Below, one piece after another: positions 1-20,530 of a stretch of 64,000 nt of DNA (its first letter is position 1; every line of letters begins with the position of its first letter). The DNA comes from Clostridia bacterium (GTDB taxonomy: Bacteria; Bacillota; Clostridia; UBA1212; DUPL01): assembly GCA_050951325.1 (NCBI GenBank), contig JBMNIW010000012.1:448001-512000 (forward strand), read 5' to 3'. Made by a program: the position numbers and the translations under genes. The notes under the pieces are model-generated. The model saw only the letters and a list, made by a program, of their open reading frames with translations, ran no database searches and had not been told where the DNA came from.

Positions 1-1759
1 CCATCGCTTTGGCTCTTCCGCCTATTTTATGCCTGGTTACGCTCCTGAAATGCTCCACCATAATTTCAGTCTTTTGAGCAATATTGTGTGGATGGAGGCT
101 TACATATCGTGTTAATGCCTTGGTGGCTTTTGCTCTGTCAAAAGTGGGGTCTTCTTCAATTTTCTTCGCCAGTTTAAAGTAGGTTTCATATGTAACATAG
201 TTTTGAAGCACATCTAAAATAAAGCCTTCTTCAATTGCCTGTCTCATAGAGTATAGATGAAACGGATGTGGTAGTCCGTCAGACCCTATCGTTCCGAACA
301 TTTCAAGAGTTTTTGCTTTAGGTGTGGCTGTAAAAGCAAAGAAACTAATATTCGGCTGTTTTCCCCTTTTCTTTATTGTTTTTATAATTTCCTCCTCAGG
401 GTCATATTCCTTGCCTTCCAACTCTTCATCCAGTTTTACTGCTTCTTCCAGGCTATTGGCAGATAGAACTTCCCTTAAAGAAGCCATATTTTCTCCTGCA
501 CTGCTGGAATGAGCCTCGTCTATAATGACGGCATACTTACGATTTTCCAACTCTCCTACCTTTTCAATGATAAAAGGAAACTTTTGCAGGGTAGAGATAA
601 TAATTCTGGTTCCACTTTTCAGTGCATCAGCCAATTGATTTGAGTCTTTATCTATTTTCTGTACAACTCCGTGTTTATGCTCTAATTGATAAATACTATC
701 CTGCAACTGCCTGTCCAAAACCCTTCTATCCGTAATAACAACGACCGAATCAAACACGGGGTTATCGTTATCATCATGAAGATTGGCAAGCCTGTGGGCA
801 AGCCATGATATGGAGTTGGTTTTCCCTGACCCTGCGCTATGCTGCACAAGATAGTTCGTCCCTACGCCTTTCTTTTTTGCATCGGCTTCCAGTTTCCTTA
901 CTACATCTAATTGGTGGTATCTTGGGAATATGACGGTTTCCGAGGTATAAGTATTACCGTCTATGTCTTTCTTTTCTTGAGTCTCTATAAATACAAATCT
1001 TTTTAATATGTCCATCAGGCTATCTTTTTGAAGTATCTCTTCCCAAAGATAATCCGTTTTTAAGCCATCAGGGTTGTCTGGATTTCCTTTTCCTCCATTA
1101 CAACCTTTATTAAATGGAAGAAAAGAAGTTTTATCTCCTGAAAGCCTTGTAGCCATATAGGCTTCTTGAGTATCTACTGCAAAGAATACAATGGCTCTTT
1201 TCTTAAACTGAAACAACAGTTCATTAGGGCTTCTGTCTTTCTTGTACTGCATTATTGCATCTTCATATGTTTGACTAGTGAAAGGATTTTTAAGTTCTAA
1301 CACAACAACAGGAAGTCCGTTCACACAGATAAGCATATCTATACTGTTTTCGTTTTTGGTACTGTAGTGTACCTGCCTTGTGACGGATATCCGATTCTTT
1401 TCATAAAGTTTTATCATTTCATCATTTAATTTGCTGGCAGGCTGGAAATAGGCAAGGTCTAAATACACGCCATAGTCTTTAATTCCATGCCTTAATACAT
1501 CAATCATACCACGGTTATTTAATTCTCTATTTAACCGGCTTAATACTTTAAACTGATACTGTTCCTTATATATCTCTCTTAATCTCTCCATCTTCTTTGG
1601 TTGTGTATCTTCTAAAAAACCAAAAAGAAGTTTAGTATCAATGGCAAATTCTTTGTTATAGTCATCAGGATTACCCTTAATATATCCTGATTTTAATAAA
1701 TGTTCTTCAACATATTCCTCAAAACCCTTTTCGCTAAGTTCTACTGGTGTTTTAGCCAT
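1..1759 (-). CDS. hsdR: Type I restriction enzyme R subunit (3' end runs off the window)
   Basis: Manual translation from ATG at 1759 (MAKTPVELSEKGFEE...) shows nuclease motif IDMLICVNGLPVVVLELKN, Walker A HSAGSGKT, and IIDEAHSS; lies downstream of hsdM/hsdS. Confidence 0.93.
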   Translation of the reverse strand, partial: MAKTPVELSEKGFEEYVEEHLLKSGYIKGNPDDYNKEFAIDTKLLFGFLEDTQPKKMERLREIYKEQYQFKVLSRLNRELNNRGMIDVLRHGIKDYGVYLDLAYFQPASKLNDEMIKLYEKNRISVTRQVHYSTKNENSIDMLICVNGLPVVVLELKNPFTSQTYEDAIMQYKKDRSPNELLFQFKKRAIVFFAVDTQEAYMATRLSGDKTSFLPFNKGCNGGKGNPDNPDGLKTDYLWEEILQKDSLMDILKRFVFIETQEKKDIDGNTYTSETVIFPRYHQLDVVRKLEADAKKKGVGTNYLVQHSAGSGKTNSISWLAHRLANLHDDNDNPVFDSVVVITDRRVLDRQLQDSIYQLEHKHGVVQKIDKDSNQLADALKSGTRIIISTLQKFPFIIEKVGELENRKYAVIIDEAHSSSAGENMASLREVLSANSLEEAVKLDEELEGKEYDPEEEIIKTIKKRGKQPNISFFAFTATPKAKTLEMFGTIGSDGLPHPFHLYSMRQAIEEGFILDVLQNYVTYETYFKLAKKIEEDPTFDRAKATKALTRYVSLHPHNIAQKTEIMVEHFRSVTRHKIGGRAKAM

Positions 1760-1774
1760 TTTCTCACTTCCTTA

Positions 1775-3610
1775 CTAACTATTTGCTAATAAATCAATTT
1801 TATTTACATCCCATATCTTTTTGCATATTTCTTTATAGAGGGACTGCCTCTCTATTAATGCCTTTTTATCAAACTGATCATATGGCTTAAAGGGTAATTG
1901 TGTTTCGTTCATAAAGCGTAAAAATAGTGGATTATTACTATAGCAATTCTTATTTAATGTCCTAGCCAATAGGTTTTCACTATCATACTTAATTACTTTC
2001 TTGCTATATTCCATATCCTGTAAACTTCTGTTTTTATCTTTAGGAAGTATTAGTAGACCTCCAAATCTATTTCTAAACTGTTTAAATTCTTCTTCCGTTG
2101 AGAAATCCTGTTGATGGTTTCCCTGAGTATAATCATCAGCCCAAATATGCTCAATATCATATGGATTTTTTTGTTCTCTATTTACATAGTTGGCAAAATT
2201 GCTGTTGATACCGCTTTGTTCCTCTATGTAATAGGTCATTCTCGCAAGAATATGAAGCATATATCTTTTTGTAAACTGATTTAAATAAAAACCATCAATA
2301 CCTTCAAGAGTTAAGTCCATACCATTTATATAATGCTTTAATATTTCCGCCAATTCACTAATATCCTTATTGCGTATCATTTTTGTTATATTAAATACTG
2401 TATATCTAATAGAAGAATAATCAACCGTCTTGAAATTAAAAACTCTGATGGATATAAATTGGTCAACAAAGCAAGAAACCATTTTAATCTTCTTATCAAT
2501 GATGTCTCGTGTATCATCACTTCTTATAGCAGATAGTATAATCTGATACTGTAGTGTAAATCCTCTGTCTGCATTATAAAATACGTACTCATAATCTTTA
2601 TTGAAGTTACGTGAATAATCCTTTAAACGTATATAGATATCTGAATACATTTGAAATTTTTTCAGTATAAAATTCTCAAAGTCTATACTACTATTTAAAC
2701 CTATAGCAGACCTATTTTCTTGGACCCATTTGTGAAATGTTGTACCAATGTTATCAAAATCCTTGTTTTCTGCATCTTTCTTACCTTCTCTAATGGTTTC
2801 TGCATACTGTGCTCTCAACCAGTTCTTTATAAAGTCTGCATCGCCATCTTTTTCGATATCTTTCAACTGTACCACTTTACTCTTCCATAAATCATTCGCC
2901 TTATTTCTAATAGTGTTGTCATCAATCATGGAAAGAAGATAGCCTTTTAACATCTCCGTAGGAGTGAGTCTCAACCCTCTATCATTCATAGTTACAAAAA
3001 CTTTATGTGCATCTTGCTCTGAATCAGTCCGTATCTGTACTAAAGATACATTATCAATTAACCATTCAATAAATACCGGAAGAGGGTCCCCTTTTAATTC
3101 ATCCGGAAAAATCCGCTCAATATCTTTATAACGATTATAAAGATTTCTAACACTCTCTGATTGCTCATTAGCAATATCGTAATCACCTGTTTCAAATAAG
3201 GATGCTAAACACTCCTCCCTTTCAGGAACATTAATACAAAATGTCTTTTGTCCATACATTTCAGAATAGATATAGTTATCAATATTGACTTTAGGTAAAT
3301 TCGCCTGCTGTTTCTGTAGATTATTTAGATAAATAAGAAGCAGTGTTAATGATGACAATCTCTGCTGTCCATCTATAATTGCATTGTCATTAGTAAGGAT
3401 AATGGGACCGAGAAAGTAATTCCCATAATTCCTTACATCAATCTGCCTGTCACCTTCTTTATAGAACTCAAAAAACTCATTGGTTAAATCCTCTATCAAC
3501 TCTTCAATCTGTTTTGTTCCCCAATTATATTCTCGCTGATAGTATTGAACCGTATATTTGTTATTCAGCAATGTGCGTAAATTTACTGCATGGGCTGTTA
3601 TCTTATTCAT
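1775..3610 (-). CDS. DUF262 + DUF1524 (HNH) protein, GmrSD-like type IV restriction endonuclease candidate
   Basis: YQREYNW, IDGQQRL and FVTMNDRG motifs (DUF262); C-terminal DIEHIW...GGLLIL...KN (DUF1524/HNH). Confidence 0.85.
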   Translation of the reverse strand: MNKITAHAVNLRTLLNNKYTVQYYQREYNWGTKQIEELIEDLTNEFFEFYKEGDRQIDVRNYGNYFLGPIILTNDNAIIDGQQRLSSLTLLLIYLNNLQKQQANLPKVNIDNYIYSEMYGQKTFCINVPEREECLASLFETGDYDIANEQSESVRNLYNRYKDIERIFPDELKGDPLPVFIEWLIDNVSLVQIRTDSEQDAHKVFVTMNDRGLRLTPTEMLKGYLLSMIDDNTIRNKANDLWKSKVVQLKDIEKDGDADFIKNWLRAQYAETIREGKKDAENKDFDNIGTTFHKWVQENRSAIGLNSSIDFENFILKKFQMYSDIYIRLKDYSRNFNKDYEYVFYNADRGFTLQYQIILSAIRSDDTRDIIDKKIKMVSCFVDQFISIRVFNFKTVDYSSIRYTVFNITKMIRNKDISELAEILKHYINGMDLTLEGIDGFYLNQFTKRYMLHILARMTYYIEEQSGINSNFANYVNREQKNPYDIEHIWADDYTQGNHQQDFSTEEEFKQFRNRFGGLLILPKDKNRSLQDMEYSKKVIKYDSENLLARTLNKNCYSNNPLFLRFMNETQLPFKPYDQFDKKALIERQSLYKEICKKIWDVNKIDLLANS

Positions 3611-4967
3611 TTCTAAAAATCACCTCATTCTTATTCTGAAATTCTCTTACATCAATTTTACCTGTTACTGCTTCTGATATAAGGGATTGGCGGTATTCTT
3701 TGAGTTTTTCGATTTGGTTTTTTGTTTCTGTTACTAAACTATCTATTTCAGCAGTTTTTTGGTCAAGGAAATTTACAATAGCATTCTGTTCGTGTCTTTC
3801 TGGTAAATTGATTAATAACGATTTAATCTAAATTCTGGCTAATCTTAGATTGTCCACCTGTAAGCCATAGCAATAATATGGTTCCTGTCTTGCCAAAAAC
3901 CAATAAAATATACAATTTAATATTTACATTTTTAGTCTGTGCTAGTGCACAGCATGCCTATTCGTTGTCGCAATTATTCTTCTAATAGATACTTTCCTAT
4001 TGTCGCTCCATACATGGCAATTCAGTAAGTATCTATGTGCATTAACTTTAAGGTTGAATAATCTTTTAATGCTATATCTGTAATCATTTTTGACGTTTCA
4101 TAGAGATATCCATCATTTAAATTCTGCACCTGTATAACCAAGGTACATCTTCATCATACTATTCTATCTGATGTACTGGGAGTTGTTCCACTACCAATTA
4201 TATTAATAATCCAATATACTTTTTGTTACTTCCCAATGCTCCGGTATCTCCCCTATCCACTCAATTCCTGAATCCTTCATCCTAACATTCGGATTAAGTC
4301 CTTTAGTAACGGCTTCAGTTATAATAGCCTGCCGTTTTTCCTGTAGTAGTTCAATCAATTTTTCCTTATCAGCAATCAAACCATCTATTTCAGCAGTTTT
4401 TTGGTATAGGAAATTGGCAATGGCGTTTTGTTCGTCATACTTTGGTAAAGGGATATTAATTGATAATAAATTAGGAACCCTAATAGTTTTTATGGTTGTC
4501 TGGTCTGAATAGTTGTCTAATTCTTCATTAAACCTTGAACTTTCCATTAACCAAACAAGCCACTTTGAATATACTTTATTTTTATTAGGTGATAACCTTA
4601 ATAAATTTGCTGTTATATTAGCATTTTCAATGTTATTAGTAACTAACCCAATTTTTCCCATTGTACCTCTAACAGACATAACAATGTCATCTTTTTTTAG
4701 TTTTGTCATAGGATAGTTATTTGATATTTCCTCCGAAATAAACCTGGGCTCACAACTTTCAACATCTATCAGTCCGTTACCTTTTAGCATTTCTCCTCTT
4801 ACTTCAATTACACCATTATCTGAATACTGGATTCCATAATAAGTAGGATACCTATATACTAACTTAAAAATCCACTTGAGTTTTAGCACATCCCAATGCT
4901 CAGGTATCTCTCCTATCCACTCAACCCCTGAATCCTTATACCTTTCATACCTCTTAAACCTACTCAT
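3603..4967 (-). pseudogene. hsdS: Type I R-M specificity subunit; TRD1 intact (ORF 4203-4967), TRD2 broken by several frameshifts and stops
   Basis: Two KDSG(V/I)EWIGEIPEHW repeats; TRD2 motifs (IGSGTTP, LNDGYLYETSK, IAMYGATIGK) seen only in shifting frames; intact tail KLKEYRQSLISEAVTGKIDVR ends at 3603. Confidence 0.85.
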
Positions 4968-6991
4968 TCACCCATCACCTTCTTCAACTTCTCTAAGATG
5001 CTCTGTTCCAGTTCTTTAATCTCTTTCATAATCTCTTCAGAAGGTCTGAGGGGCTGGTATTTATAAAAATGCCTTGTGAAAGGTATTTCATATCCAATTT
5101 TAGTCTTAGTTTCATCTATCCAGGCATCAGGCACGTGGGGCTTTACTTCCCGTTCAAAGTACTCATATATATCTTCTTTCAAAGGTACGTTTTCAGTATC
5201 CCTCAGGTCTGGGTCTGGTTCAGGATTGCCATTGCTGTCCACACAAATATCCGCTGTTTCATCTTTTTCGGAAATGGCAGACAGGATAGCCTTTAAAAGT
5301 GCACTATCCAGTTTAATATCACTGTCTTTAAAAGCCTTCTTCAGCACTTTTGTAAATTCATCTCTATTTTTATACAAAATAGTAGAGTCCATTGTTTTTA
5401 AGGTTTCTATTATTTGCTGTTGTAGTTTCTTACCTTCTTCTATTTCTTTAAGCCCTGCTGTTCCCTTTTTCTTAGACTTTGCAAGATTACTAAAGGCTGT
5501 TTCATTATATAAATTATTAATTCTTTCTTCAGTTACCTGGAAATTAAGCCTTAAAGGCCTTTCCACAACTATTTTCTGGTATCCGAAATCTTCATTATCA
5601 AAAATCTTGCAGTATTCATTCTCCTTAAACTCACCATATATCCTTGTAATTTCTTTTATCTGCTCTTCAGTGATTTCATTTCTCTTATTCCCAAGGCTTT
5701 TTCTCATTTTTTGATAGAAATCTACTGCATTAACCAACTGTATTTTACCAGTCCTTACAGGCCCCTTCATTGGGTCATTATTTTTACGATTGGTAACTAT
5801 CCATATATAGGTAGAAATACCCGTGTTATAGAATAACTGGTCAGGCAGTGCAATAATACCTTCCAGCATGTCATTTTCAATTATCCAGCGCCTTATTTCC
5901 GATTCGCCTGAGCCAGCATCCCCAGTAAACAATGGCGAGCCATTAAAGATAATAGCAATACGGCTGCCTTTTTCGTCCTGTTTCATTTTAGATATTAAGT
6001 GCTGCAGGAATAAAAGGGAACCATCGGATATTCTGGGAAGCCCAGCACCGAATCTGCCGTTATACCCTTCTTTTTCATATTCTTCACGAATAAACTTCTC
6101 CGCTTTCTTCCATTCAACACCAAAAGGCGGATTGGTTAGCATGTACCTAAAAGTTTTGCCTCTATGTCCATCTTCAGTAAAACTGTCGCCCAAAATGATG
6201 TTATCTGCATTTTGCCCTTTTATGAGCATGTCAGATTTGCAGATACTAAAGGACTGAGGATTTATCTCCTGTCCAAATAATTCCACTTGTATTCCCGGGT
6301 TTAATTCTTTGAGGTATTGCTCTGCAACCGAAAGCATACCACCTGTACCTGCACAGCAGTCGTAAACAGTTACAACAAGCCCTGGCTGGGTTAGTTCTTC
6401 ATTATCCTCATTAAGAAGAATATTTACCATTAACCTTATAACCTCACGAGGAGTATAGTGGTCACCTGCCTCTGCATGTTCAGAAAATCTCCTGATAAGT
6501 TCCTCAAATATGTAACCCATTTCGGTATTGCTTACCTTATCAGGATGTAAGTCTATCTTATTAAACTCAGATACCACAAGATAAAGCAGGTTGTTGTCAC
6601 TAAGTTTTGTAATCTGCTTGTCAAAATCAAAGTGTTCTATAATTTCTCTGGCGTTTTTAGAAAAGCCGTTAATATAATTTCTTAAATTATTTGCGATATT
6701 ATCAGGGTCGGCTAATAATTTTTCAAAATCATACTTGCTTGTATTATTGAATCCTTGCTTTGATATCCTATTTAAAACAGGGTCCATGTTTTGGAGCCCT
6801 GACTTCTTTAAGGCTTCATACTTTTCCAATACTTCCTGCTTAGTGGCTGCAAGAACACAGTCAAACCTCCTGAGTACGGCCATTGGCAGTATTACATCGC
6901 CGTATTGTTCTTTTTTATAAGGCCCTCTTAAAAGTTCTGCTATGCTCCATATAAAGTTAACTTTATCTTGAAAGTTAATCAACTTTATCAC
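4964..6991 (-). CDS. hsdM: Type I R-M N6-adenine methyltransferase M subunit
   Basis: HYTPREVI, YDCCAGTGGML (motif I) and NPPF (motif IV). Confidence 0.96.
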   Translation of the reverse strand: MIKLINFQDKVNFIWSIAELLRGPYKKEQYGDVILPMAVLRRFDCVLAATKQEVLEKYEALKKSGLQNMDPVLNRISKQGFNNTSKYDFEKLLADPDNIANNLRNYINGFSKNAREIIEHFDFDKQITKLSDNNLLYLVVSEFNKIDLHPDKVSNTEMGYIFEELIRRFSEHAEAGDHYTPREVIRLMVNILLNEDNEELTQPGLVVTVYDCCAGTGGMLSVAEQYLKELNPGIQVELFGQEINPQSFSICKSDMLIKGQNADNIILGDSFTEDGHRGKTFRYMLTNPPFGVEWKKAEKFIREEYEKEGYNGRFGAGLPRISDGSLLFLQHLISKMKQDEKGSRIAIIFNGSPLFTGDAGSGESEIRRWIIENDMLEGIIALPDQLFYNTGISTYIWIVTNRKNNDPMKGPVRTGKIQLVNAVDFYQKMRKSLGNKRNEITEEQIKEITRIYGEFKENEYCKIFDNEDFGYQKIVVERPLRLNFQVTEERINNLYNETAFSNLAKSKKKGTAGLKEIEEGKKLQQQIIETLKTMDSTILYKNRDEFTKVLKKAFKDSDIKLDSALLKAILSAISEKDETADICVDSNGNPEPDPDLRDTENVPLKEDIYEYFEREVKPHVPDAWIDETKTKIGYEIPFTRHFYKYQPLRPSEEIMKEIKELEQSILEKLKKVMGE

Positions 6992-7192
6992 TCCTATGTA
7001 TTTCTCGATTTTGATACTTTAAGTCATTTATCAGTATATACACGCAAAATTATACCAATCTATACTTAAATATTCTATATTTTTTTAGATTTTCCTTTAC
7101 AATTTACAATCTTACAGAATATCGTAATATTTTATAAACTTTTTTATATTAAAAGCATCATACCTCCAGAGGATATATAAATAGTCTTCATT

Positions 7193-8866
7193 TCATGCAA
7201 TATTAAGACTCTTCAAAGACGATATCATATAGAATAGTTCATCTAAATACAATATCAATTTTAATGAGTTTATTTCATTATCATAGTTTAAAGCCTGCCC
7301 ATGAAATATCTTATGCCTACTAAAATCCTGTACTTCATCTGGCTCTTCAGGATTAAACCTTACATAAAATGAATCTATGCAATTAAAAGCATAGTTAACA
7401 ATAAAATTATCCAATTCTTTTGCTTTTTCTTTGAAATTATTATATAAATAACTAAATTTTTTCGCTGATATGTCATAAGTATCCCTTAAAAAATCTCGGA
7501 TAACTCCCTCAATCATAAATGTCCATATCGGAATGCACAAAGAGTATTTTCCTAATTTATGAGCATAAAAAGCATCGTCTATTTTGCTTCCCCACTTACA
7601 AAAATATTCCAGTCCATACCATTCTCTTATTATTTCTTCTAATTCTTTGTAATCATTGTCTTTATAAAAATCACATACTATTTTATCCACATCTTCTTGA
7701 AGTAAAGTTTCCCTGTTTCTATATATATAATTTATTTTTTCTATCGGTAAGGAACCGATAAACCACCAGCCAAACTGAAGCATAGTTTTGGCTTTCTTTT
7801 TTAAACTTTCATTTATATTCACATTTGAAACAAGTACAGTCTGTATGTTAAGTAAAAAAGGTTTTATATTATTAATAATACTTTGCTGTATATTTACAAA
7901 ATTCAATAATTTATCATTATATGTGAAGTTAAGTATATTATTTAGTTCTGTTCCGAGAGTCTGTATATGGCTCTGTAAGTTGTTATTTAAAGCCCTTCTC
8001 AGTAATTCTTGGCTCTCTAACGCTCTTCTAATGTATTCCATGTTATTGGGCTGTAGTATATCCCTTATGGCGTTTATTTCAGAATAGAAATTTTGAACCG
8101 TTGCAATCATGGCAGAAGACGATGCTATAGAAGACTGCATCTTTATCGCATTGCTTATATTATTGTATATTGGAGAATTAATTACTTTCGTATATGCTTC
8201 CATTGTACTTCCCAACTTACTTATGGTGGCAGCCAATTCTATTAATGCTGGATTATTTATAATATTTTGATACATTGCTGCATCAATAGAAGGATATCTT
8301 ACTGTTTCTGTTATCCTGCTTATTCTTGATGCTAATTCTATGCTTGGTAATAAATTTTTATAGTTGTCTAAAAAATCTAATTTAGACTTCATTTGTACTG
8401 CTATTTTTTTCATTTGTTCTCTATACTCTTCTGCTTCTTTTTTATGAATCAAATAGAACTTTATAAAAAAATCATCTGCTTCTTCAGTTACTTCTTCATC
8501 AAACCTTTTTAAATAATCTGAACTATCTATAATTTCTTCTCCAATCTTTTTTAAATCATTATCAGATAAACTTTCTATATCATCTAACTGAAGAGTAGGA
8601 AACTCATCTTCTTGGTATACTACATTACGACTATTCCTAATTATTCTTAAAACCATTTTGCAGAATGCTTTTCTATAATTTTTTGTTTCTTCAAAGGCCT
8701 TTTCATAAGTACTTGCGGCATCCATACTATAATAAATAGGTATTTCTAACTCTCTGTCCTGCCAATTTACAGGTACCAATTTTATCGCTCTTTTATAGGC
8801 TTCTGTTATATCTCCCAAACTTGTTATTTCCTTTATATCTTTAGGTTCTTTTTTCACAGATATCAT
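7193..8866 (-). CDS. Hypothetical protein with long helical middle and C-terminal HEPN-like domain
   Basis: 557-aa AT-rich ORF; C-terminal AFYAHKLGKY...MIEG...SRHKIFHG (Rx4H) pattern. Confidence 0.55.
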   Translation of the reverse strand: MISVKKEPKDIKEITSLGDITEAYKRAIKLVPVNWQDRELEIPIYYSMDAASTYEKAFEETKNYRKAFCKMVLRIIRNSRNVVYQEDEFPTLQLDDIESLSDNDLKKIGEEIIDSSDYLKRFDEEVTEEADDFFIKFYLIHKKEAEEYREQMKKIAVQMKSKLDFLDNYKNLLPSIELASRISRITETVRYPSIDAAMYQNIINNPALIELAATISKLGSTMEAYTKVINSPIYNNISNAIKMQSSIASSSAMIATVQNFYSEINAIRDILQPNNMEYIRRALESQELLRRALNNNLQSHIQTLGTELNNILNFTYNDKLLNFVNIQQSIINNIKPFLLNIQTVLVSNVNINESLKKKAKTMLQFGWWFIGSLPIEKINYIYRNRETLLQEDVDKIVCDFYKDNDYKELEEIIREWYGLEYFCKWGSKIDDAFYAHKLGKYSLCIPIWTFMIEGVIRDFLRDTYDISAKKFSYLYNNFKEKAKELDNFIVNYAFNCIDSFYVRFNPEEPDEVQDFSRHKIFHGQALNYDNEINSLKLILYLDELFYMISSLKSLNIA

Positions 8867-8956
8867 CCTCTATCCAAATACTGTTATTTCTATTTTAAGA
8901 CATTTATTTATTATCCTCAACAGAATTACAACATTTTTATCGACTATTATTAAAAT

Positions 8957-8985
8957 AAAAGCACATCTCGTAATGAGTGTGCTTT
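8957..8985 (-). terminator. Probable intrinsic terminator
   Basis: AAAAGCAC(A)...GTGCTTT hairpin downstream of the DUF2325 ORF. Confidence 0.55.
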
Positions 8986-9895: not shown

Positions 9896-10050
9896 CTATT
9901 CATCTATTAAGTACCTTGTAATAAGTTCATCCAGTTTCTGGCTTAGTCTCAACGTCTCTTCATTGTTTATTCCTTTGCCCTCGAGGGTAACTTTTTTATT
10001 CAACTCATCTCTTAATTTCTCTATTTCCCGAAGCAAATGCTTCAATTTTG
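9896..10050 (-). pseudogene. Spo0E-family aspartyl-phosphate phosphatase, 3' part (5' part at 12835-12862), split by IS21
   Basis: Translation KLKHLLREIEKLRDELNKKVTLEGKGINNEETLRLSQKLDELITRYLIDE*; SQxLD signature. Confidence 0.75.
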
Positions 10051-10459: not shown

Positions 10460-11188
10460 TTAAGCCCTCATTGTTGAATGAGCAAGTCTAAAGCTTGGTC
10501 CATTATGCAATATTAAATAACCATGATGTACCATTCTGTCCAGAATTGCATTAGTTAGCTTTTCATCATAAAAGATAGTGTTCCATTCGTTAAAAGGTAG
10601 GTTTGTAGTAATTACTACACTACGTTGCTCATAGCATTCCGAAATTACCTCAAACAGTAACTGAGTACCAGTCTTTTCAAACGGGATATAGCCCCACTCA
10701 TCCAATATGACAAGTTTTGCATTTAAAAGCTTCTTCCAGATGCTCTCTAGATTCTTTGAGGCCATTGCCTCAACTAAATCGTTAACCAATCTACTAGTCT
10801 TGTAATAAGCAACTCTATTTCCTTTCCTGCAGGCTTCAACACCTATAGCGGTTGCTAAGTGAGTCTTTCCGGTTCCAGGCTTTCCAAAAAGTATTAAGTT
10901 CTGTTTATTTTCGATAAATGTACATTCTTTTAAATCGTCTACTGATAGCTCTTCAGGCAGTTGTACATAATCAAAGGAATAGTTGGCAAAGCTTTTAATT
11001 ACATCAAAACCAGCCTGTTTTAAATATCGGTTTTTACGTTCTATGTCTCTTTCTTCAACAACAACCCTCAGTAAACTTATTAAGAAATCTTCGTTAGTCT
11101 CAGCTTCTATTGTTTTGTATGCTTCGGCCATGTATGTTCCTAGTCTTAATTGCTTACAGAGCTCAAGTATTATTCTTTGCTTGCTCAT
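10460..11188 (-). CDS. istB: IS21 helper ATPase IstB
   Basis: GKPGTGKTHLA Walker A, VILDEWGY, TTNLPF, AILDRMVH. Confidence 0.95.
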   Translation of the reverse strand: MSKQRIILELCKQLRLGTYMAEAYKTIEAETNEDFLISLLRVVVEERDIERKNRYLKQAGFDVIKSFANYSFDYVQLPEELSVDDLKECTFIENKQNLILFGKPGTGKTHLATAIGVEACRKGNRVAYYKTSRLVNDLVEAMASKNLESIWKKLLNAKLVILDEWGYIPFEKTGTQLLFEVISECYEQRSVVITTNLPFNEWNTIFYDEKLTNAILDRMVHHGYLILHNGPSFRLAHSTMRA

Positions 11189-12701
11189 TATCCACACCCC
11201 TTTCTCGAACTAAAGACATATACGCTTGTAAATCTACTTTATACTCTGCATGTTTGGGAAACTTTACGTTTGTCTCGATATTAGCTTCAGGAAGCACAGG
11301 ATCGATTATGTACCTATATGCAGCTTGTATGCTTTCTGAGCTGTTTGCGCCTAAAGTTATTGCCTTATTGAAGAACTCCATTGCTTTTTCATAGCCTTCT
11401 ATCTCAGCTCGTTCTGCAAAGAACTTTAATGCTTTCTGTGCATCTGGTAGATCTGCTTGCTTAAAAAATTCTCTTGTTTCTTCTGGCAACTCCTCATAAA
11501 ACATTGTATACTTTAACGCCTTCGGTCTTTTTGCTATCAAAGGGAGATAGGTCTCCCACTTAATGGATTCTTGGTTTTTGCCATATAACCTTGGATGTTC
11601 AACAATTAACTCAGAATTAGCATTTAATATTCTGACAGACATAGCAGATACCTGTAGTATTACCTCACTCTGCCCGTAGTAACTGCTCGTGGAGTACAAA
11701 TTGGTTTCAAATTTTGCACGTCCGTATTTGTCAGTTTTAGCAAAAACAAATTTGCAAGCATCAAAGTCAATAGCTGGCAGTTCGTTCATTGCTGCTAAAT
11801 CCTCTTTGAAAAGGTCACATACTTGTCTTTCGTACTTGTAGTGTTCTCTTATCATATCACTTGAACATTTCTCTAAAAGAATCTTATTGTACTCGGATAA
11901 ATCCTCTATACGTGGCACAGGTACAAACATATTTCTTCGGCTTGTTCCAACATAATTCTCGGCAGATCCTTTTTCATGACCAGAGTTTGGGTTGCAAAAA
12001 TTGCTTTTAAAGCCATAATGGCACATTAGTCTCTTGAAGCCATCAGTGACTTCTCTTTCTCCGTACGATTTAATTCTTTTTACTGCTGTACTCATGTTAT
12101 CAAAACGAATTATTGTAGGCACCTTGCCTAGATACTCAAAGACATTTTTGAGTCCCTGCATCAAGCACTCTAAATTTTCACCTTTAAACAGCTGGACAAA
12201 CTTGCCATCTGAATGAGGAAATGTTACTACTAAATGATGTCCTTCATAAAGTATTCCCTTTTCGTAAAATTCAGTTTTCCCAAAGTCGACTTGTGCCTCA
12301 CCTGCAGGATGCTCAAGGGGTAAATGAGTATTTTTTATTTCTTTTATTTCTTGCCTAATATCAGCAACGAGAGTACGTATAGCGCGTTCAGATACATTAA
12401 ACTCTTCACCTTCTTTTAAAGCTTCTTCCTTTAATCTGGTGTAAACCCGATGTGCTGTATGACGTTGCTTTGGAGGGGCAGATAGATCATCCGTAAGCCA
12501 TTGTTTCACTCTTTCTCGATATTTAGATGTCTTGCCGCTACGCTTAACCTTTACAGGAACCTTGGGACTAAAGTCCTCCATTTCTACGTATTTCTTTACA
12601 GTCTCAAAATCGTGTTTTGTCTCCCTTGCAATCTGCCTCAAACTCTTTCCTTCATTTTTATACATATTTCTGATATTATATATTTGCTCCATTGTTAACA
12701 T
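11163..12701 (-). CDS. istA: IS21 DDE transposase IstA
   Basis: N-terminal HTH (SLRQIARE), AQVDFG, FDNM, GHEKGSAE. Confidence 0.95.
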   Translation of the reverse strand: MLTMEQIYNIRNMYKNEGKSLRQIARETKHDFETVKKYVEMEDFSPKVPVKVKRSGKTSKYRERVKQWLTDDLSAPPKQRHTAHRVYTRLKEEALKEGEEFNVSERAIRTLVADIRQEIKEIKNTHLPLEHPAGEAQVDFGKTEFYEKGILYEGHHLVVTFPHSDGKFVQLFKGENLECLMQGLKNVFEYLGKVPTIIRFDNMSTAVKRIKSYGEREVTDGFKRLMCHYGFKSNFCNPNSGHEKGSAENYVGTSRRNMFVPVPRIEDLSEYNKILLEKCSSDMIREHYKYERQVCDLFKEDLAAMNELPAIDFDACKFVFAKTDKYGRAKFETNLYSTSSYYGQSEVILQVSAMSVRILNANSELIVEHPRLYGKNQESIKWETYLPLIAKRPKALKYTMFYEELPEETREFFKQADLPDAQKALKFFAERAEIEGYEKAMEFFNKAITLGANSSESIQAAYRYIIDPVLPEANIETNVKFPKHAEYKVDLQAYMSLVRERGVDNEQAKNNT

Positions 12702-13019: not shown

Positions 13020-13460
13020 TCAATTTAAGTTTTTGAAAAAACTATATCCTTTAATATAGTAACCATTTTTCTTATAAAACTCATGTGCTTCTTTACGGTC
13101 AATTCCGCTATTCAATGTAATTGCAGTTGCACCTTCATCTATTGCCCATTTTTCTGCTGATTCTAATAATTTTGTTCCAATCCCTTTACCTCTATATTGT
13201 TCGTTAACTACCAAAGCAATAATTCTTACATATTCTCCATCAAACTCATATGCATATAATTTACATAAACCAATAAAACCAACAACTTTTCTATCCACTT
13301 CTGCAACAAGTGTATTATAGCATTTACTTGAATTAATTCTCGATAATCTTTCTGATACATTCTTTATAGACGATGGATAGCCTAATTCTTTAATTAACTC
13401 TGTCAGTTTCCCAAAATCATCATCAATTATTTTTCTAATATGAACTTCTATTTGACTCAT
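13020..13460 (-). CDS. GNAT family N-acetyltransferase
   Basis: YRGKGIGTKLL acetyl-CoA motif and AHEFYKKNGY; GGAGG RBS before ATG at 13460. Confidence 0.9.
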   Translation of the reverse strand: MSQIEVHIRKIIDDDFGKLTELIKELGYPSSIKNVSERLSRINSSKCYNTLVAEVDRKVVGFIGLCKLYAYEFDGEYVRIIALVVNEQYRGKGIGTKLLESAEKWAIDEGATAITLNSGIDRKEAHEFYKKNGYYIKGYSFFKNLN

Positions 13461-13637
13461 TTTACTAACCTCCAGTAAAAACCTCTTGTTGCACTTTATT
13501 TTACTAATGCGTACCATATACCTTTATTTTACACCACTTCATCTATAAAAACATCTATATTTTATAACCCATATCCAAAAATCCCCAACGCCAATAGATA
13601 AACTTTAAATATCGATTATACTTAAATGTGAATGAAT

Positions 13638-14400
13638 AACTTTATTTCATTTTATTAGAACTATATCGGTTATAATTTTTTTTCAAAATTATTATGCTCC
13701 CATTTTGGAAACAGAAAATGCAACGTATGTTCTATAGGAAATGCAAAAAAATTCCTTACATGGACTCCCTGCAATTACCAATCATCTTATACCCTAAACC
13801 CATATGAAATCTCGTATTTCCAATGCTTCCCTTGTTCCTTTCACCTTTCAATATCACAACTTTATTTTATTATAAAAGAACTTTAACATCCTTAAAAATG
13901 TCTTTCCTTTTTTTAAAATTTCTTCTTCATCATTTCTGAAACAGAAAAATATACCAAGTTCTTATAAAAATAAAATAAAGTCCTAATTCCTTTTCCCTTT
14001 TATCCCCATTCCCCTTGTATTTTATATACTTTATCCCCATTCTTGTATCAAGAAATGTGGTTAAAACCTTAATCTAAGGACTTTATTTTCTTTTTGTAAC
14101 TACTTTTCTGTCATGAAAGAACTTTTCTGTTTCTAAAATTTTTACCCATATGAATTTTAGAAACAGAAAAAAATCGCTATGTTATATAGCAAAAGCAAAT
14201 AAAGTCCTATTACAAATTTCCTTTAATCCCCATTTATCTTGTGTCTTGGAACTCTATTAACTCCAGTATTTTCAACACTTTCCCTTATTCCTTATTCCTG
14301 TAAATAAAACTACTTTATTTCATTTTCTTTTCCATTCAATCTTCCAATCCATTGATTTATCTTAATTTCGGCCTTGCTCCTTATTCCTTATCCCTTAAAA
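13638..14400. repeat. Degenerate tandem array of three ~220-bp units, each containing a ~120-130 bp imperfect palindrome
   Basis: GAAACAGAAAA at 13708, 13938 and 14160; palindrome arms ACTTTATTT...AAATAAAGT; perfect 18-bp inner stem 14123-14140/14153-14170. Confidence 0.75.
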
Positions 14401-14498
14401 CTAATACATAAAAAACATGGCCTACAGGACATTCTTTTGCCCTAATAAACCATGTTTTCTGATACAACTTTATTTACTCCGTTTCATACATTTGAAAA

Positions 14499-15971
14499 AT
14501 GAAAGGAGTTTATTTGATTTATACAGTAGAGTATGCAGAAAGCAACGGGTGGCGATATGATATTTATGAAGAAAAGGTAATGTCAGGGGAAAATTTGGAA
14601 GGTAGACCTGTTATACAAGAATTATTGACTGAAATTGAGAAACATAAATATGACGCTGTCCTCGTAATTCATCCAGATAGACTCAGTCGCGGAGGTAGTA
14701 GGGATTTTGGATTGATTACAAGCGTTTTTAAATATGCCAATACATACCTTTTAACTCCACAAAGAAGTTATGATTTATCGGATTCCAGTGATGCTTTAGT
14801 ACTTGGAATTGAAGGTGTCATGTCAAACACAGAACTAAATCTAATCAAAAGCCGTTTCAAATGGGGAAAAATTCAGAGTGTAAAAAAAGGGCGACTTAGC
14901 AATGGAAACCCGCCCTATCCGTACGAAAAAATTCGAAAAATTATTGAGGATGAGAAAGGTAGAGTGAGAGTAGATTTTGACATCATAGTAAATCCGGAAA
15001 AAAACCAAGTATACCAAAGAATAAAACAGATGTATCTCAGGGGAATGGGAACTGAAAGAATTGCTTTTAAACTAAATCGTGAAAATATACCTAGCCCTGG
15101 TGGAAAAACATGGAGTTCTAACACCATCCAAAGACTTCTAGTGCATGAATTCCATATGGGAAAAATAGTATATGGTAAGTATGAATGGAAGAAAAAACCT
15201 CTTTCTGGAGATAGAGAGGTAATAAAAAGAGATGAAGATGAATGGATAATCGGATATGGAAATCATGAAAAACTAAAAACCGAAGAAGAGCACACAGCAA
15301 TCTTGGAAATAATGGGTAGAAATAGAAAAATCCCTCACCGTGCGAGACATGGAGTATATCCAACAAGCGGTTTATTAACATGCAAACTTTGTGGAAGAAC
15401 AATGACTTATAGTCGTGGCAGGAAGGAAGTAAAAACAGGAAAAACGTATGATTATACAAAGTGTTATTATCACAGACCAACTGGAGAAAAATGTCCACAG
15501 CGAGGAGTAAAGATGACAGAAGAGTTTTATGAAAAATTGTATAATACTATAGTTAATAGTTATCTAGACAAAGAAAGAATCAAACAAATTAGTCAAAACC
15601 AAGAAGAGAAGAAAAATATAGAGAAACAAATAAAGACGAAACAAGCCGAATTAGAAAAACATGAAAATGCCCTTAAACTTGCAAGAGAAAAATTAGAAGA
15701 AGGCGTATATAGCGATGAAGACTTTTTGGATGCAAAAAAAAGAAGGCAACCTCAAATTACAAAACTGCGTAAAGAAATTATTCAATTTAAGAACAAACGC
15801 TTCACTGCTTACTCTGATGAAGAATTAGAAAAACTTATAGAGAATTTTAAATGTAACTGGCATAACGCAGTCACAGATAAAGAAAAAAATCAATTACTTA
15901 AGACAATAGTTAAGAAAATTTACTACAATCGTGAAGGTAATACTGTGACTTTTGAAATTGAGTATCTGTAA
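14499..15971 (+). CDS. Large serine recombinase, N-terminal catalytic motif missing
   Basis: SG...RP and DRLSR of the resolvase domain, recombinase domain, zinc ribbon (LLTCKLCG...C...C), coiled coil, KNQLLKTIVKKIYY tail; no YxRxS at the start. Confidence 0.88.
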   Translation: MKGVYLIYTVEYAESNGWRYDIYEEKVMSGENLEGRPVIQELLTEIEKHKYDAVLVIHPDRLSRGGSRDFGLITSVFKYANTYLLTPQRSYDLSDSSDALVLGIEGVMSNTELNLIKSRFKWGKIQSVKKGRLSNGNPPYPYEKIRKIIEDEKGRVRVDFDIIVNPEKNQVYQRIKQMYLRGMGTERIAFKLNRENIPSPGGKTWSSNTIQRLLVHEFHMGKIVYGKYEWKKKPLSGDREVIKRDEDEWIIGYGNHEKLKTEEEHTAILEIMGRNRKIPHRARHGVYPTSGLLTCKLCGRTMTYSRGRKEVKTGKTYDYTKCYYHRPTGEKCPQRGVKMTEEFYEKLYNTIVNSYLDKERIKQISQNQEEKKNIEKQIKTKQAELEKHENALKLAREKLEEGVYSDEDFLDAKKRRQPQITKLRKEIIQFKNKRFTAYSDEELEKLIENFKCNWHNAVTDKEKNQLLKTIVKKIYYNREGNTVTFEIEYL

Positions 15972-16022: not shown

Positions 16023-16211
16023 TTATTTGCAGACTTGACACCAGTGACAGGTGCTATAACCAATTGACAGAAATACTGGTTTGTTTTCCAGTTTTGCCTT
16101 TTCAAAGGCTTTATCGCACCAGGGATACCAGTCGATGGGATTATATGCATGCTGCAGTAAGTAGGGAGATTTCTCGTGGATAAGTCTATTGGCTTGCTTG
16201 TTAGTTGACAT
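16023..16211 (-). pseudogene. 5' fragment of yyaL/DUF255 thioredoxin-domain gene (copy 1), truncated after CHWC
   Basis: [24 protein letters not shown]...[13 protein letters not shown] followed by a stop; GGAGG RBS. Confidence 0.88.
16027..16053. other. Putative LSR attachment junction (att-like), copy 1
   Basis: TTGCAGACTTGACACCAGTGACAGGTG matches 20193-20219 at 25/27; identity extends past the point where yyaL coding is lost. Confidence 0.6.
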
Positions 16212-16716
16212 CGGAACCACCTCCTATTGTTTATGATAATTGCACTATACGCTGTTTATGACATTATTTGGTATGAGCTGGATTCGTATATATTATACAA
16301 TACGCTATAAATTTTGGCATAATGTCTTATGCAAGAGGAACTGCTGTGTTGTTGAGTTAGCATGCTTCTTATTGATTCTGTTGAATTAAACACTTGAATC
16401 CTCTCCTTCATTATTATACAGTAAAACTCCCTTGTTTATACCCTGCTGCACTATTTCGAATACACTTTCTTCTTTACAAGCACATATGTTCAATATATTT
16501 CGCACCACGTCTTCTTTTTTTTCCTCGGCTTCTCGCAAGAAACTTTGCAATAACTTGGGCGTCGAGTGCCTTGTTGATGGTGCCACGATTACCTTTATCT
16601 ATTCAAATTTTATGTAAGAGGACTTTTGTTGACATCTTAATCATAGACTGAACTATAGTTAAGCTTGTAGTGGGGAGAGGTTCCGGTCCGTTAGTGAACA
16701 AAGTTCTAATTTTACT

Positions 16717-19810: not shown

Positions 19811-20137
19811 ATGGGAAAGGAGTATAAAGCCCTAGACAATCTATTGATAATGCGTGAGGATGGGGAGATCGATAAAGAGACATTTTTAAGGCGAAAAGAA
19901 ATTAGGGAGACAAACATAAAAGTGATAAAAGAAAAAATAAATGAACTCGAGGAGAGAATTAAGAGAAGCCAGGCCATGGATGATAAAAGGCGACTGGCTA
20001 ATATTGAAAACTTTTTTACAAAATGGGAACAGACAGATAGCATTGAATTGAAAAATCAGTTTTTGAGAATGATTATCGACAACATTATCTATAAAAGAGA
20101 GTGAGATGAGATTGAGAACGTTGTAAATTTTTGTTAG
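19811..20137 (+). pseudogene. C-terminal remnant of a second large serine recombinase
   Basis: EDGEIDKETF...KNQFLRMIIDNIIYKRE*DEIENVVNFC parallels EEGVYSDEDF...KNQLLKTIVKKIYYNREGNTVTFEIEYL of 14499-15971. Confidence 0.75.
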
Positions 20138-20167: not shown

Positions 20168-20377
20168 TTACAACATTGTCGTTTGGTGTATATTGCAGAC
20201 ATGGCACCAGTGACAGGTGGAATAGCCGATGGAAAGAAAGACAGGCTTGTCCTCTGCCTTCGCCTTTACAATGGCTTCTTCACCCCAGGGAAACCAGTCC
20301 ACAGGATTGTATGCATGTTGCAACAAGTAGGGGGATTTCTCGTGAATCAGTCTATTGGCTTGTTTGCTGGTTGACAT
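20168..20377 (-). pseudogene. 5' fragment of yyaL/DUF255 gene (copy 2), truncated after CHWCHV
   Basis: [31 protein letters not shown]...[12 protein letters not shown] followed by unrelated residues. Confidence 0.88.
20193..20219. other. Putative LSR attachment junction (att-like), copy 2
   Basis: TTGCAGACATGGCACCAGTGACAGGTG, near-identical to 16027-16053. Confidence 0.6.
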
Positions 20378-20530
20378 CGGTATCACGTCCTTGATTTCTA
20401 GCGTTCTCATCACTATACGCATAACTTTGACACTTATTATTAGCGAGTCTCATATAACAAGTTGCTATTTGTATTATAACCTTTTTATGGTCTCTTTTAT
20501 TCTCGTCTTTCAGAGCTGTCCCTGCATACA

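Follow-up and report, generated by a model that had tools for sequence, protein, structure and literature searches.

A palindromic array in clostridial DNA is very probably the inner part of the long end of a recR-targeting Tn7-like transposon

Introduction

Prototypic Tn7, which uses TnsD to recognize attTn7 at glmS, encodes TnsABCD, inserts in one orientation at a fixed distance after a conserved gene and leaves a 5-bp target duplication, and the family described here resembles it in its genes, its mode of insertion and its duplication. The family differs from Tn7 in targeting recR and in having an end region of 0.7-1.2 kb with back-to-back internal sites. Directly repeated, two-ended terminal modules, which also occur solo between target duplications, are a feature of composite transposons, MITEs and solo LTRs. 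In the phage Mu enhancer, several internal transposase-type sites lie within ~1 kb of one end, and a separate domain binds them as a different sequence.

Each Tn7 end carries three or four sites (PMC9308760); by convention the right end is the one upstream of the tns genes, and an end whose sites are closely spaced is usually turned toward the att site (PMC11406308). Varied att sites, nested ends and composite capture have all been described for Tn7-like elements (PMC11014353, PMC8649781, PMC10293859). Tn6022/AbaR of Acinetobacter resembles the recR family in its repeated and nested insertions, its composite DNA capture and its several ends per island, but differs in its target, comM, and in its host group, and the available part of its account describes neither a standing two-ended module nor a palindromic unit array (PMC11014353). 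TnsB sites without TGT or ACA still give immunity in Tn6022 (PMC11014353), and the reading that we propose for the recR family is similar in allowing immunity from TnsB sites without a terminus.

Here we analyze a 64,000-nucleotide stretch of DNA from a Clostridia bacterium (the window). The original prediction, made from the letters alone, placed in it a non-coding array of three palindromic units beside a large serine recombinase (LSR) gene and proposed that the array was a cis-acting module of the recombinase's element or a set of structured ncRNAs.

Results

A palindromic array without long reading frames

The three units, their arms and spacings, the repeated 11-mer and a fourth arm were all located where the original prediction had them. 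Copies of ACTTTATTT lie exactly at window positions 13639, 13859, 14080 and 14312, with the complement at 13973 and 14197, while GAAACAGAAAA is found at 13708, 13938 and 14160. The perfect 18-bp inner stem described for the third unit (14077..14208) was found at 14123-14140/14153-14170; it is peculiar to the window copy, since homologues keep the outer 11-12 bp only. As stated originally, the array holds no ORF of 60 aa or more, the longest being 47 aa at 14417. When DNA folding was compared with that of dinucleotide shuffles, the segments 14070-14215 (z -7.2) and 13850-13990 (z -3.5) folded more strongly and the segments 13630-13765 (z -1.3) and 14300-14440 did not, such that strong stems were confirmed for two units but not for the innermost one. 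Searching the 3.08-Mb genome with a paired-arm pattern and a unit profile gave no second match elsewhere. Absent from the original prediction were two further sites at 14467-14475 and 14507-14515, the terminus at 14525, the deletion at ~14318 and the truncation of the LSR, all described below.

Homologous arrays and ends lie after recR

A search pattern made from the array arms retrieved at least 120 loci, mostly by chance; among the 120 listed, seven were matched by blastn, and these seven homologues lie either directly after dnaX-ybaB-recR (five) or at contig starts (two). A second pattern was taken from a conserved inverted repeat with a long loop and a following T run (14412..14458, minus strand) and retrieved 96 stretches, nearly all from Clostridia. 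Carriers include Clostridium, Tissierella, Tepidanaerobacter, Herbinix, Lutispora, Fervidicella and Thermoclostridium. This inverted repeat could possibly stop read-through from recR; a terminator scan did not flag it.

recR is adjacent in 64 loci, 57 of which keep the first site. The end begins 14-16 bp after the recR stop codon, in one orientation, in 53 of these 57 loci, and it carries TGT in 56 of 57, preceded by five bases that take 48 different forms; because the loci are kin, these counts do not represent independent events, although the boundary is nonetheless sharp. The family was present in 24 of 397 other genomes in an even sample of the class, and neither end nor array had a match in plasmids or viral contigs. 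The recR site of the window's own genome is empty, the window copy being located off-site.

Homology to the relatives starts in the window at a transposon terminus, TGT (14523..14525, minus strand), which is recR-proximal in relatives and corresponds to the right end by Tn7 convention. Matrix scores identify TnsB-type sites in the adjoining terminal block (14467..14515, minus strand) at 14507-14515 and 14467-14475. These two are spaced 40 bp apart and flank a weak site, which is the layout of a Tn7 end. In a Tn7 end from an E. coli plasmid (L496), the terminal TGT is likewise followed by the AATAAAGT core, with one copy 11 bases inside the terminus and a second 41 bp further on. The layout of the recR-proximal end also fits the right-end convention and the tendency of close sites to face the att site (PMC11406308).

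Complete elements repeat a two-ended module at both extremities

Two relatives are complete from end to end, G067 (~47 kb) and G068 (~55 kb), and both have the order recR, cargo, tnsABCD, far end. Pfam confirmed the TnsA, Mu-transposase, TniB/AAA and TniQ/TnsD families in the tnsABCD genes, which lie 31-44 kb from the recR-proximal end in three elements, and among solved structures Tn7 TnsB (7PIK, E 2e-110) was the best match to TnsB. These genes are absent from the window's truncated copy. No tnsE was recognized, and Pfam identified no second targeting protein (TnsE, TnsF or Cascade) that could explain an off-target insertion in the five genes after tnsD in two elements. A 5-bp target duplication was present in seven of nine end pairs (G067, G068, G070, G072, G073, G074 and L253), three of them pairs whose ends lie on separate contigs of one genome and two of them solo modules; G063 has a 6-bp duplication and G076 no matching one. 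All nine pairs come from relatives, since the far end of the window copy is missing. The far terminus is ACA or ATA.

Both extremities of G067 and G068 are formed by the same ~455-bp module, in direct orientation and with a terminus on each side, and partial elements agree. The module also occurs stacked, with 4-8 nt between copies, and solo between duplications (G074, L253), as in composite transposons, MITEs and solo LTRs; in contrast with those elements, it encodes nothing and depends on a targeted Tn7-type transposase. Solo copies could stem either from transposition or from recombination between two modules. By comparison with relatives, the window copy has lost the inner terminus of its module to a ~320-bp deletion, the scar of which lies at 14317..14320 with a 4-nt microhomology; undeleted forms appear as loose ends at 14317 in contigs of public runs.

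Units start 190-193 bp inside the inner terminus of the recR-side module. Of the 40 module ends that were followed by sufficient DNA, 20 had the conserved inner flank and units, 17 had neither and three were mixed, and no unit was found just inside the far module or between cargo genes. The number of units ranges from 0 to 3 (1-3 where present), with hybrid and shortened units and 20-bp deletions. All 24 arrays examined end on an inward-facing site, beyond which the DNA falls into 17 unrelated groups, and stacked insertions at recR are frequent. Taken together, these sequence comparisons leave little doubt that the array belongs to the long end of a recR-targeting Tn7-like transposon, of which it would form the inner part.

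Cargo of the window copy and its relatives

The first cargo gene of the window encodes a GNAT acetyltransferase (13020..13517, minus strand; Pfam PF00583), and the first cargo gene varies among relatives. Further cargo, including type I restriction-modification and GmrSD genes, occupies 1..8985 on the minus strand and runs on for ~9.5 kb to the left of the window; from contig position C12:438,527 to window position 8985 it is collinear with the cargo of the complete elements G067 and G068 at 69-91% identity. The hsdS gene at 4203-4967 is short (254 aa compared with 430-440 aa in G067 and G068), with likeness resuming at 4220-4435, and may be split or rearranged. An IS21-family element (istA, istB) is inserted at 10460-12701, between the GNAT gene and a Spo0E-like ORF (9896-10045), and another IS21 splits the array of L216. 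A promoter scan gave no hits beyond those expected by chance. Ahead of the first cargo gene, at 13516-13549 on the minus strand, a conserved motif recurs in nine of 29 records and could be a cargo promoter, although the scan did not flag it.

In the cargo of L196, L201, L202, L209 and L236 a block recurs in which a four-helix gene of the 23S-IVP family is joined by an actin-like (ParM-type) gene and its small partner gene; the small genes before this block vary in order. A truncated tnsD of another family starts a few bases after the last array site in L198, L471 and L472.

The window's genome carries a second Tn7-like element after rpsI (G000:C3:15,900-22,450; L264), with tnsABC, a frameshifted tnsD and different end repeats. 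It is 45-51% identical to the recR family and probably does not provide the cognate transposase for the recR-family end. BREX-like genes, judged by eye from ORF starts, lie behind it. A sister Tn7-like family shares the core motif and has ends with three sites spaced at 20 bp; such ends were observed in L040/L160 (~3189-3790), L490 (2600-2950) and L039 (3423). One sister-family copy lies in an array linker. The L490 copy has one unit and starts right after the stop codon of another gene, which also precedes ends in L164 and L178, suggesting a second att site.

The unit arms resemble terminal TnsB sites

We scored the array with a site matrix trained on terminal sites only, the window's own two included. 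All six unit arms and the arm at 14312 scored between p 3e-4 and 3e-7. The unit nearest the terminus (14077..14208), which consists of back-to-back clusters of TnsB-type sites by alignment, had the best arms (3e-7 and 5e-7), followed by the middle unit (13858..13984; 2e-6 and 2e-4) and the innermost, most decayed unit (13638..13756; 2e-5 and 3e-4), whose last site forms the border to the variable cargo. The fourth arm is an inward-facing site (14312..14320, minus strand; p 9e-5) that lies behind a decayed terminus in relatives, TGT preceding it in only 10 of 24 compared with 56 of 57 at the real end. Twelve sites reached p 1e-3 within 1131 bp, where 2.2 were expected, two of the twelve being training sites and three probably due to chance.

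When aligned to the 54-bp terminal block, the inner half of the unit outscored every one of 20 shuffles in 39 of 45 units, while the outer half did so in only 20 of 45. In nine three-unit arrays that are 70-90% identical overall, site columns were 98% conserved compared with 84% elsewhere, a difference that is partly circular given that the columns were picked by consensus and the loci are kin. These data make it very likely that the unit arms are TnsB sites, so the palindromy of the units would reflect two site clusters placed back to back.

An exact end-target-end junction was rejected as a description of the unit, the centre measuring 25-28 bp with the terminal trinucleotides out of line. 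Because the unit centre lacks exact junction geometry, we infer, rather than read directly, an origin of the units as relics.

The neighboring recombinase gene is a remnant interrupted by the transposon end

The listed ORF at 14499-15971 takes its ATG from the transposon end, and its annotation is corrected here to that of a truncated LSR remnant, which extends from codon 37 (14526..15971, plus strand) and is without the start and the catalytic-serine motif. The 517-aa database protein P0001 is 99.8% identical to it from residue 37 only, and the differing start of P0001 holds the catalytic-serine motif; the missing 5' part was not found in the genome. Intact LSR copies (L388, L391) and contigs of public runs part from the window at 14525, and the DNA upstream of them is unrelated. 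The LSR element is bordered by a 5' piece of yyaL (16023..16220, minus strand), the rest of which lies at C12:436073-437959; yyaL is the target of the LSR and not of the array. The segment 19811-20422 is probably an older LSR element at the same site, containing part of another serine recombinase (19811-20104) and a further 5' piece of yyaL (20168-20422).

The original prediction proposed a search for homologous arrays beside yyaL-targeting LSRs. Unit and end profiles run on 160 loci of LSR relatives gave no unit match and one weak end match, and a search of genomes with the window LSR yielded no close relative, with matches of only 21-32% in 59 related genomes. Since no unit was found in these 160 loci and the LSR sequences diverge at 14525, the array is not a module of the LSR element.

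Most simply, the arrangement in the window's genome would have arisen by an off-target insertion at LSR codon 37, a later deletion in which tnsABCD, the far end and the start of the LSR were lost, and a second deletion of ~320 bp of the module at ~14318. Just beyond C12:438,527 the DNA no longer resembles the transposon cargo but instead LSR elements and the yyaL border. An inverted repeat (G000:C12:438,535-438,580) stands at this junction of LSR-derived and transposon-derived DNA; in G067 and G068 it is flanked by genes for a tyrosine recombinase and a 659-aa protein, and it may be a recombination site. Among the contigs listed for four runs, none crosses either the 14525/14526 junction or the deletion at 14318, and both may be strain-specific or assembly errors, although the nucleotides shared at them number only one and four, respectively. 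The transposon and LSR elements of this genome are probably immobile on their own.

Discussion

Our analyses favor, as the probable explanation of the whole, a Tn7-like end in which the units are an extra TnsB platform that was kept from stacked ends. TnsD would read the 3' end of recR, and each unit arm, like the terminal block, would consist of clustered TnsB sites. The units would descend from end-to-end junctions of stacked insertions whose termini were lost, and the additional bound TnsB could benefit the element in one of two ways, by protecting the att region against more insertions or by favoring movement of the whole element over that of the terminal module alone. Strong immunity is argued against by the variable number of units (0-3) and by the family's stacking at its att site, which leaves either an end choice biased to the whole element or a neutral relic. 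We regard a selected function of the units as an even question. The original prediction of a cis-acting, multi-site protein-binding module of a mobile element was thus right about the kind of module, with binding being predicted, but assigned it to the LSR element rather than to a Tn7-like one.

One possible but less favored reading keeps the same element and origin and considers the units to be neutral remnants of stacked ends in a transposon that has spread recently. The variable copy number (0-3) and the hybrid and shortened units, 20-bp deletions among them, are what such relics would show, the linkers are well conserved too in arrays that are 70-90% identical, and stacking at the att site is ongoing. 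However, the sites outlast the termini that adjoin them, and all 24 arrays stop on a recognizable site where the cargo changes.

A more ambitious version, which we advance only tentatively, is an LTR-like build in which each extremity is a full mini-transposon and an array of cleavage-dead, back-to-back TnsB clusters, serving as an enhancer or selector, directs the transposase to the outermost ends, such that the 50-kb cargo moves and not the 455-bp module. If true, a Tn7-type element would possess a device dedicated to end choice; we found no description of such a device in the part of the literature covered. Unlike in the Mu enhancer, the array motif is the end motif itself, and an enhancer role for the array is a prediction.

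It is improbable that the units instead bind another protein, such as a host architectural protein, a cargo-promoter regulator or a cargo-swapping recombinase, with their TnsB likeness being inherited or secondary. The inner motif TTTTCTGTTTC is strongly kept despite scoring poorly as a TnsB site, and the left and right arms differ by about one helical turn. In addition, the cargo changes abruptly behind the array, and an XerC/D-like recombinase is present in the two complete elements. Its gene, however, is missing from the window genome's copy, cargo genes have no units between them, and the outer arms are near-perfect matches to terminal sites. An integron attC array was also considered and rejected, given that the units cluster at the element end only and do not follow each cargo gene; by eye, no shared site was seen in the intergenic DNA of nine loci.

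The suggestion that the units are structured ncRNAs, or single-stranded hairpins, appears unlikely. RNAalifold found no consensus pair among 38 units, pairs with two-sided changes did not outnumber those in shuffles (180 of 500), 14-36 of the 38 copies cannot form one or another of several stem pairs, both strands fold alike and no unit matched an Rfam family. Two of the three units do fold better than shuffles. On a hand-drawn structure there was a small covariation excess, with a score of 0.086 versus 0.072 that was reached by one of 500 shuffles and is inflated by kinship according to the tool's own warning, and there were 32 cells with two-sided changes (four of 500 shuffles). Contigs from two RNA runs do not cover 13416-14143 and are uninformative on expression. 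The possibility that the array serves the yyaL-targeting LSR element, as a binding platform or as an origin of replication or transfer, can practically be dismissed. Array and LSR adjoin each other in the window genome only, the end cuts into the LSR reading frame, relatives have the array but no LSR, the 160 LSR loci lack units, no relaxase or Rep gene is among the neighbors (GNAT, IS21, LSR) and plasmids and viral contigs gave no match.

While the Tn7-like kind of element is already known, the recR att site, the doubled module and the internal array may be new: in the literature covered, which is partial, we found no account of a Tn7-like family with an att site after recR and no description of a doubled two-ended module with an internal site array. 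Defence genes are part of the cargo that the family carries in clostridia from digesters, compost and hot habitats. Its conserved site, which leaves recR intact, could serve targeted integration in clostridia that are hard to engineer, and its nested ends and internal sites provide a natural test of Tn7 end choice and of how site number relates to target immunity.
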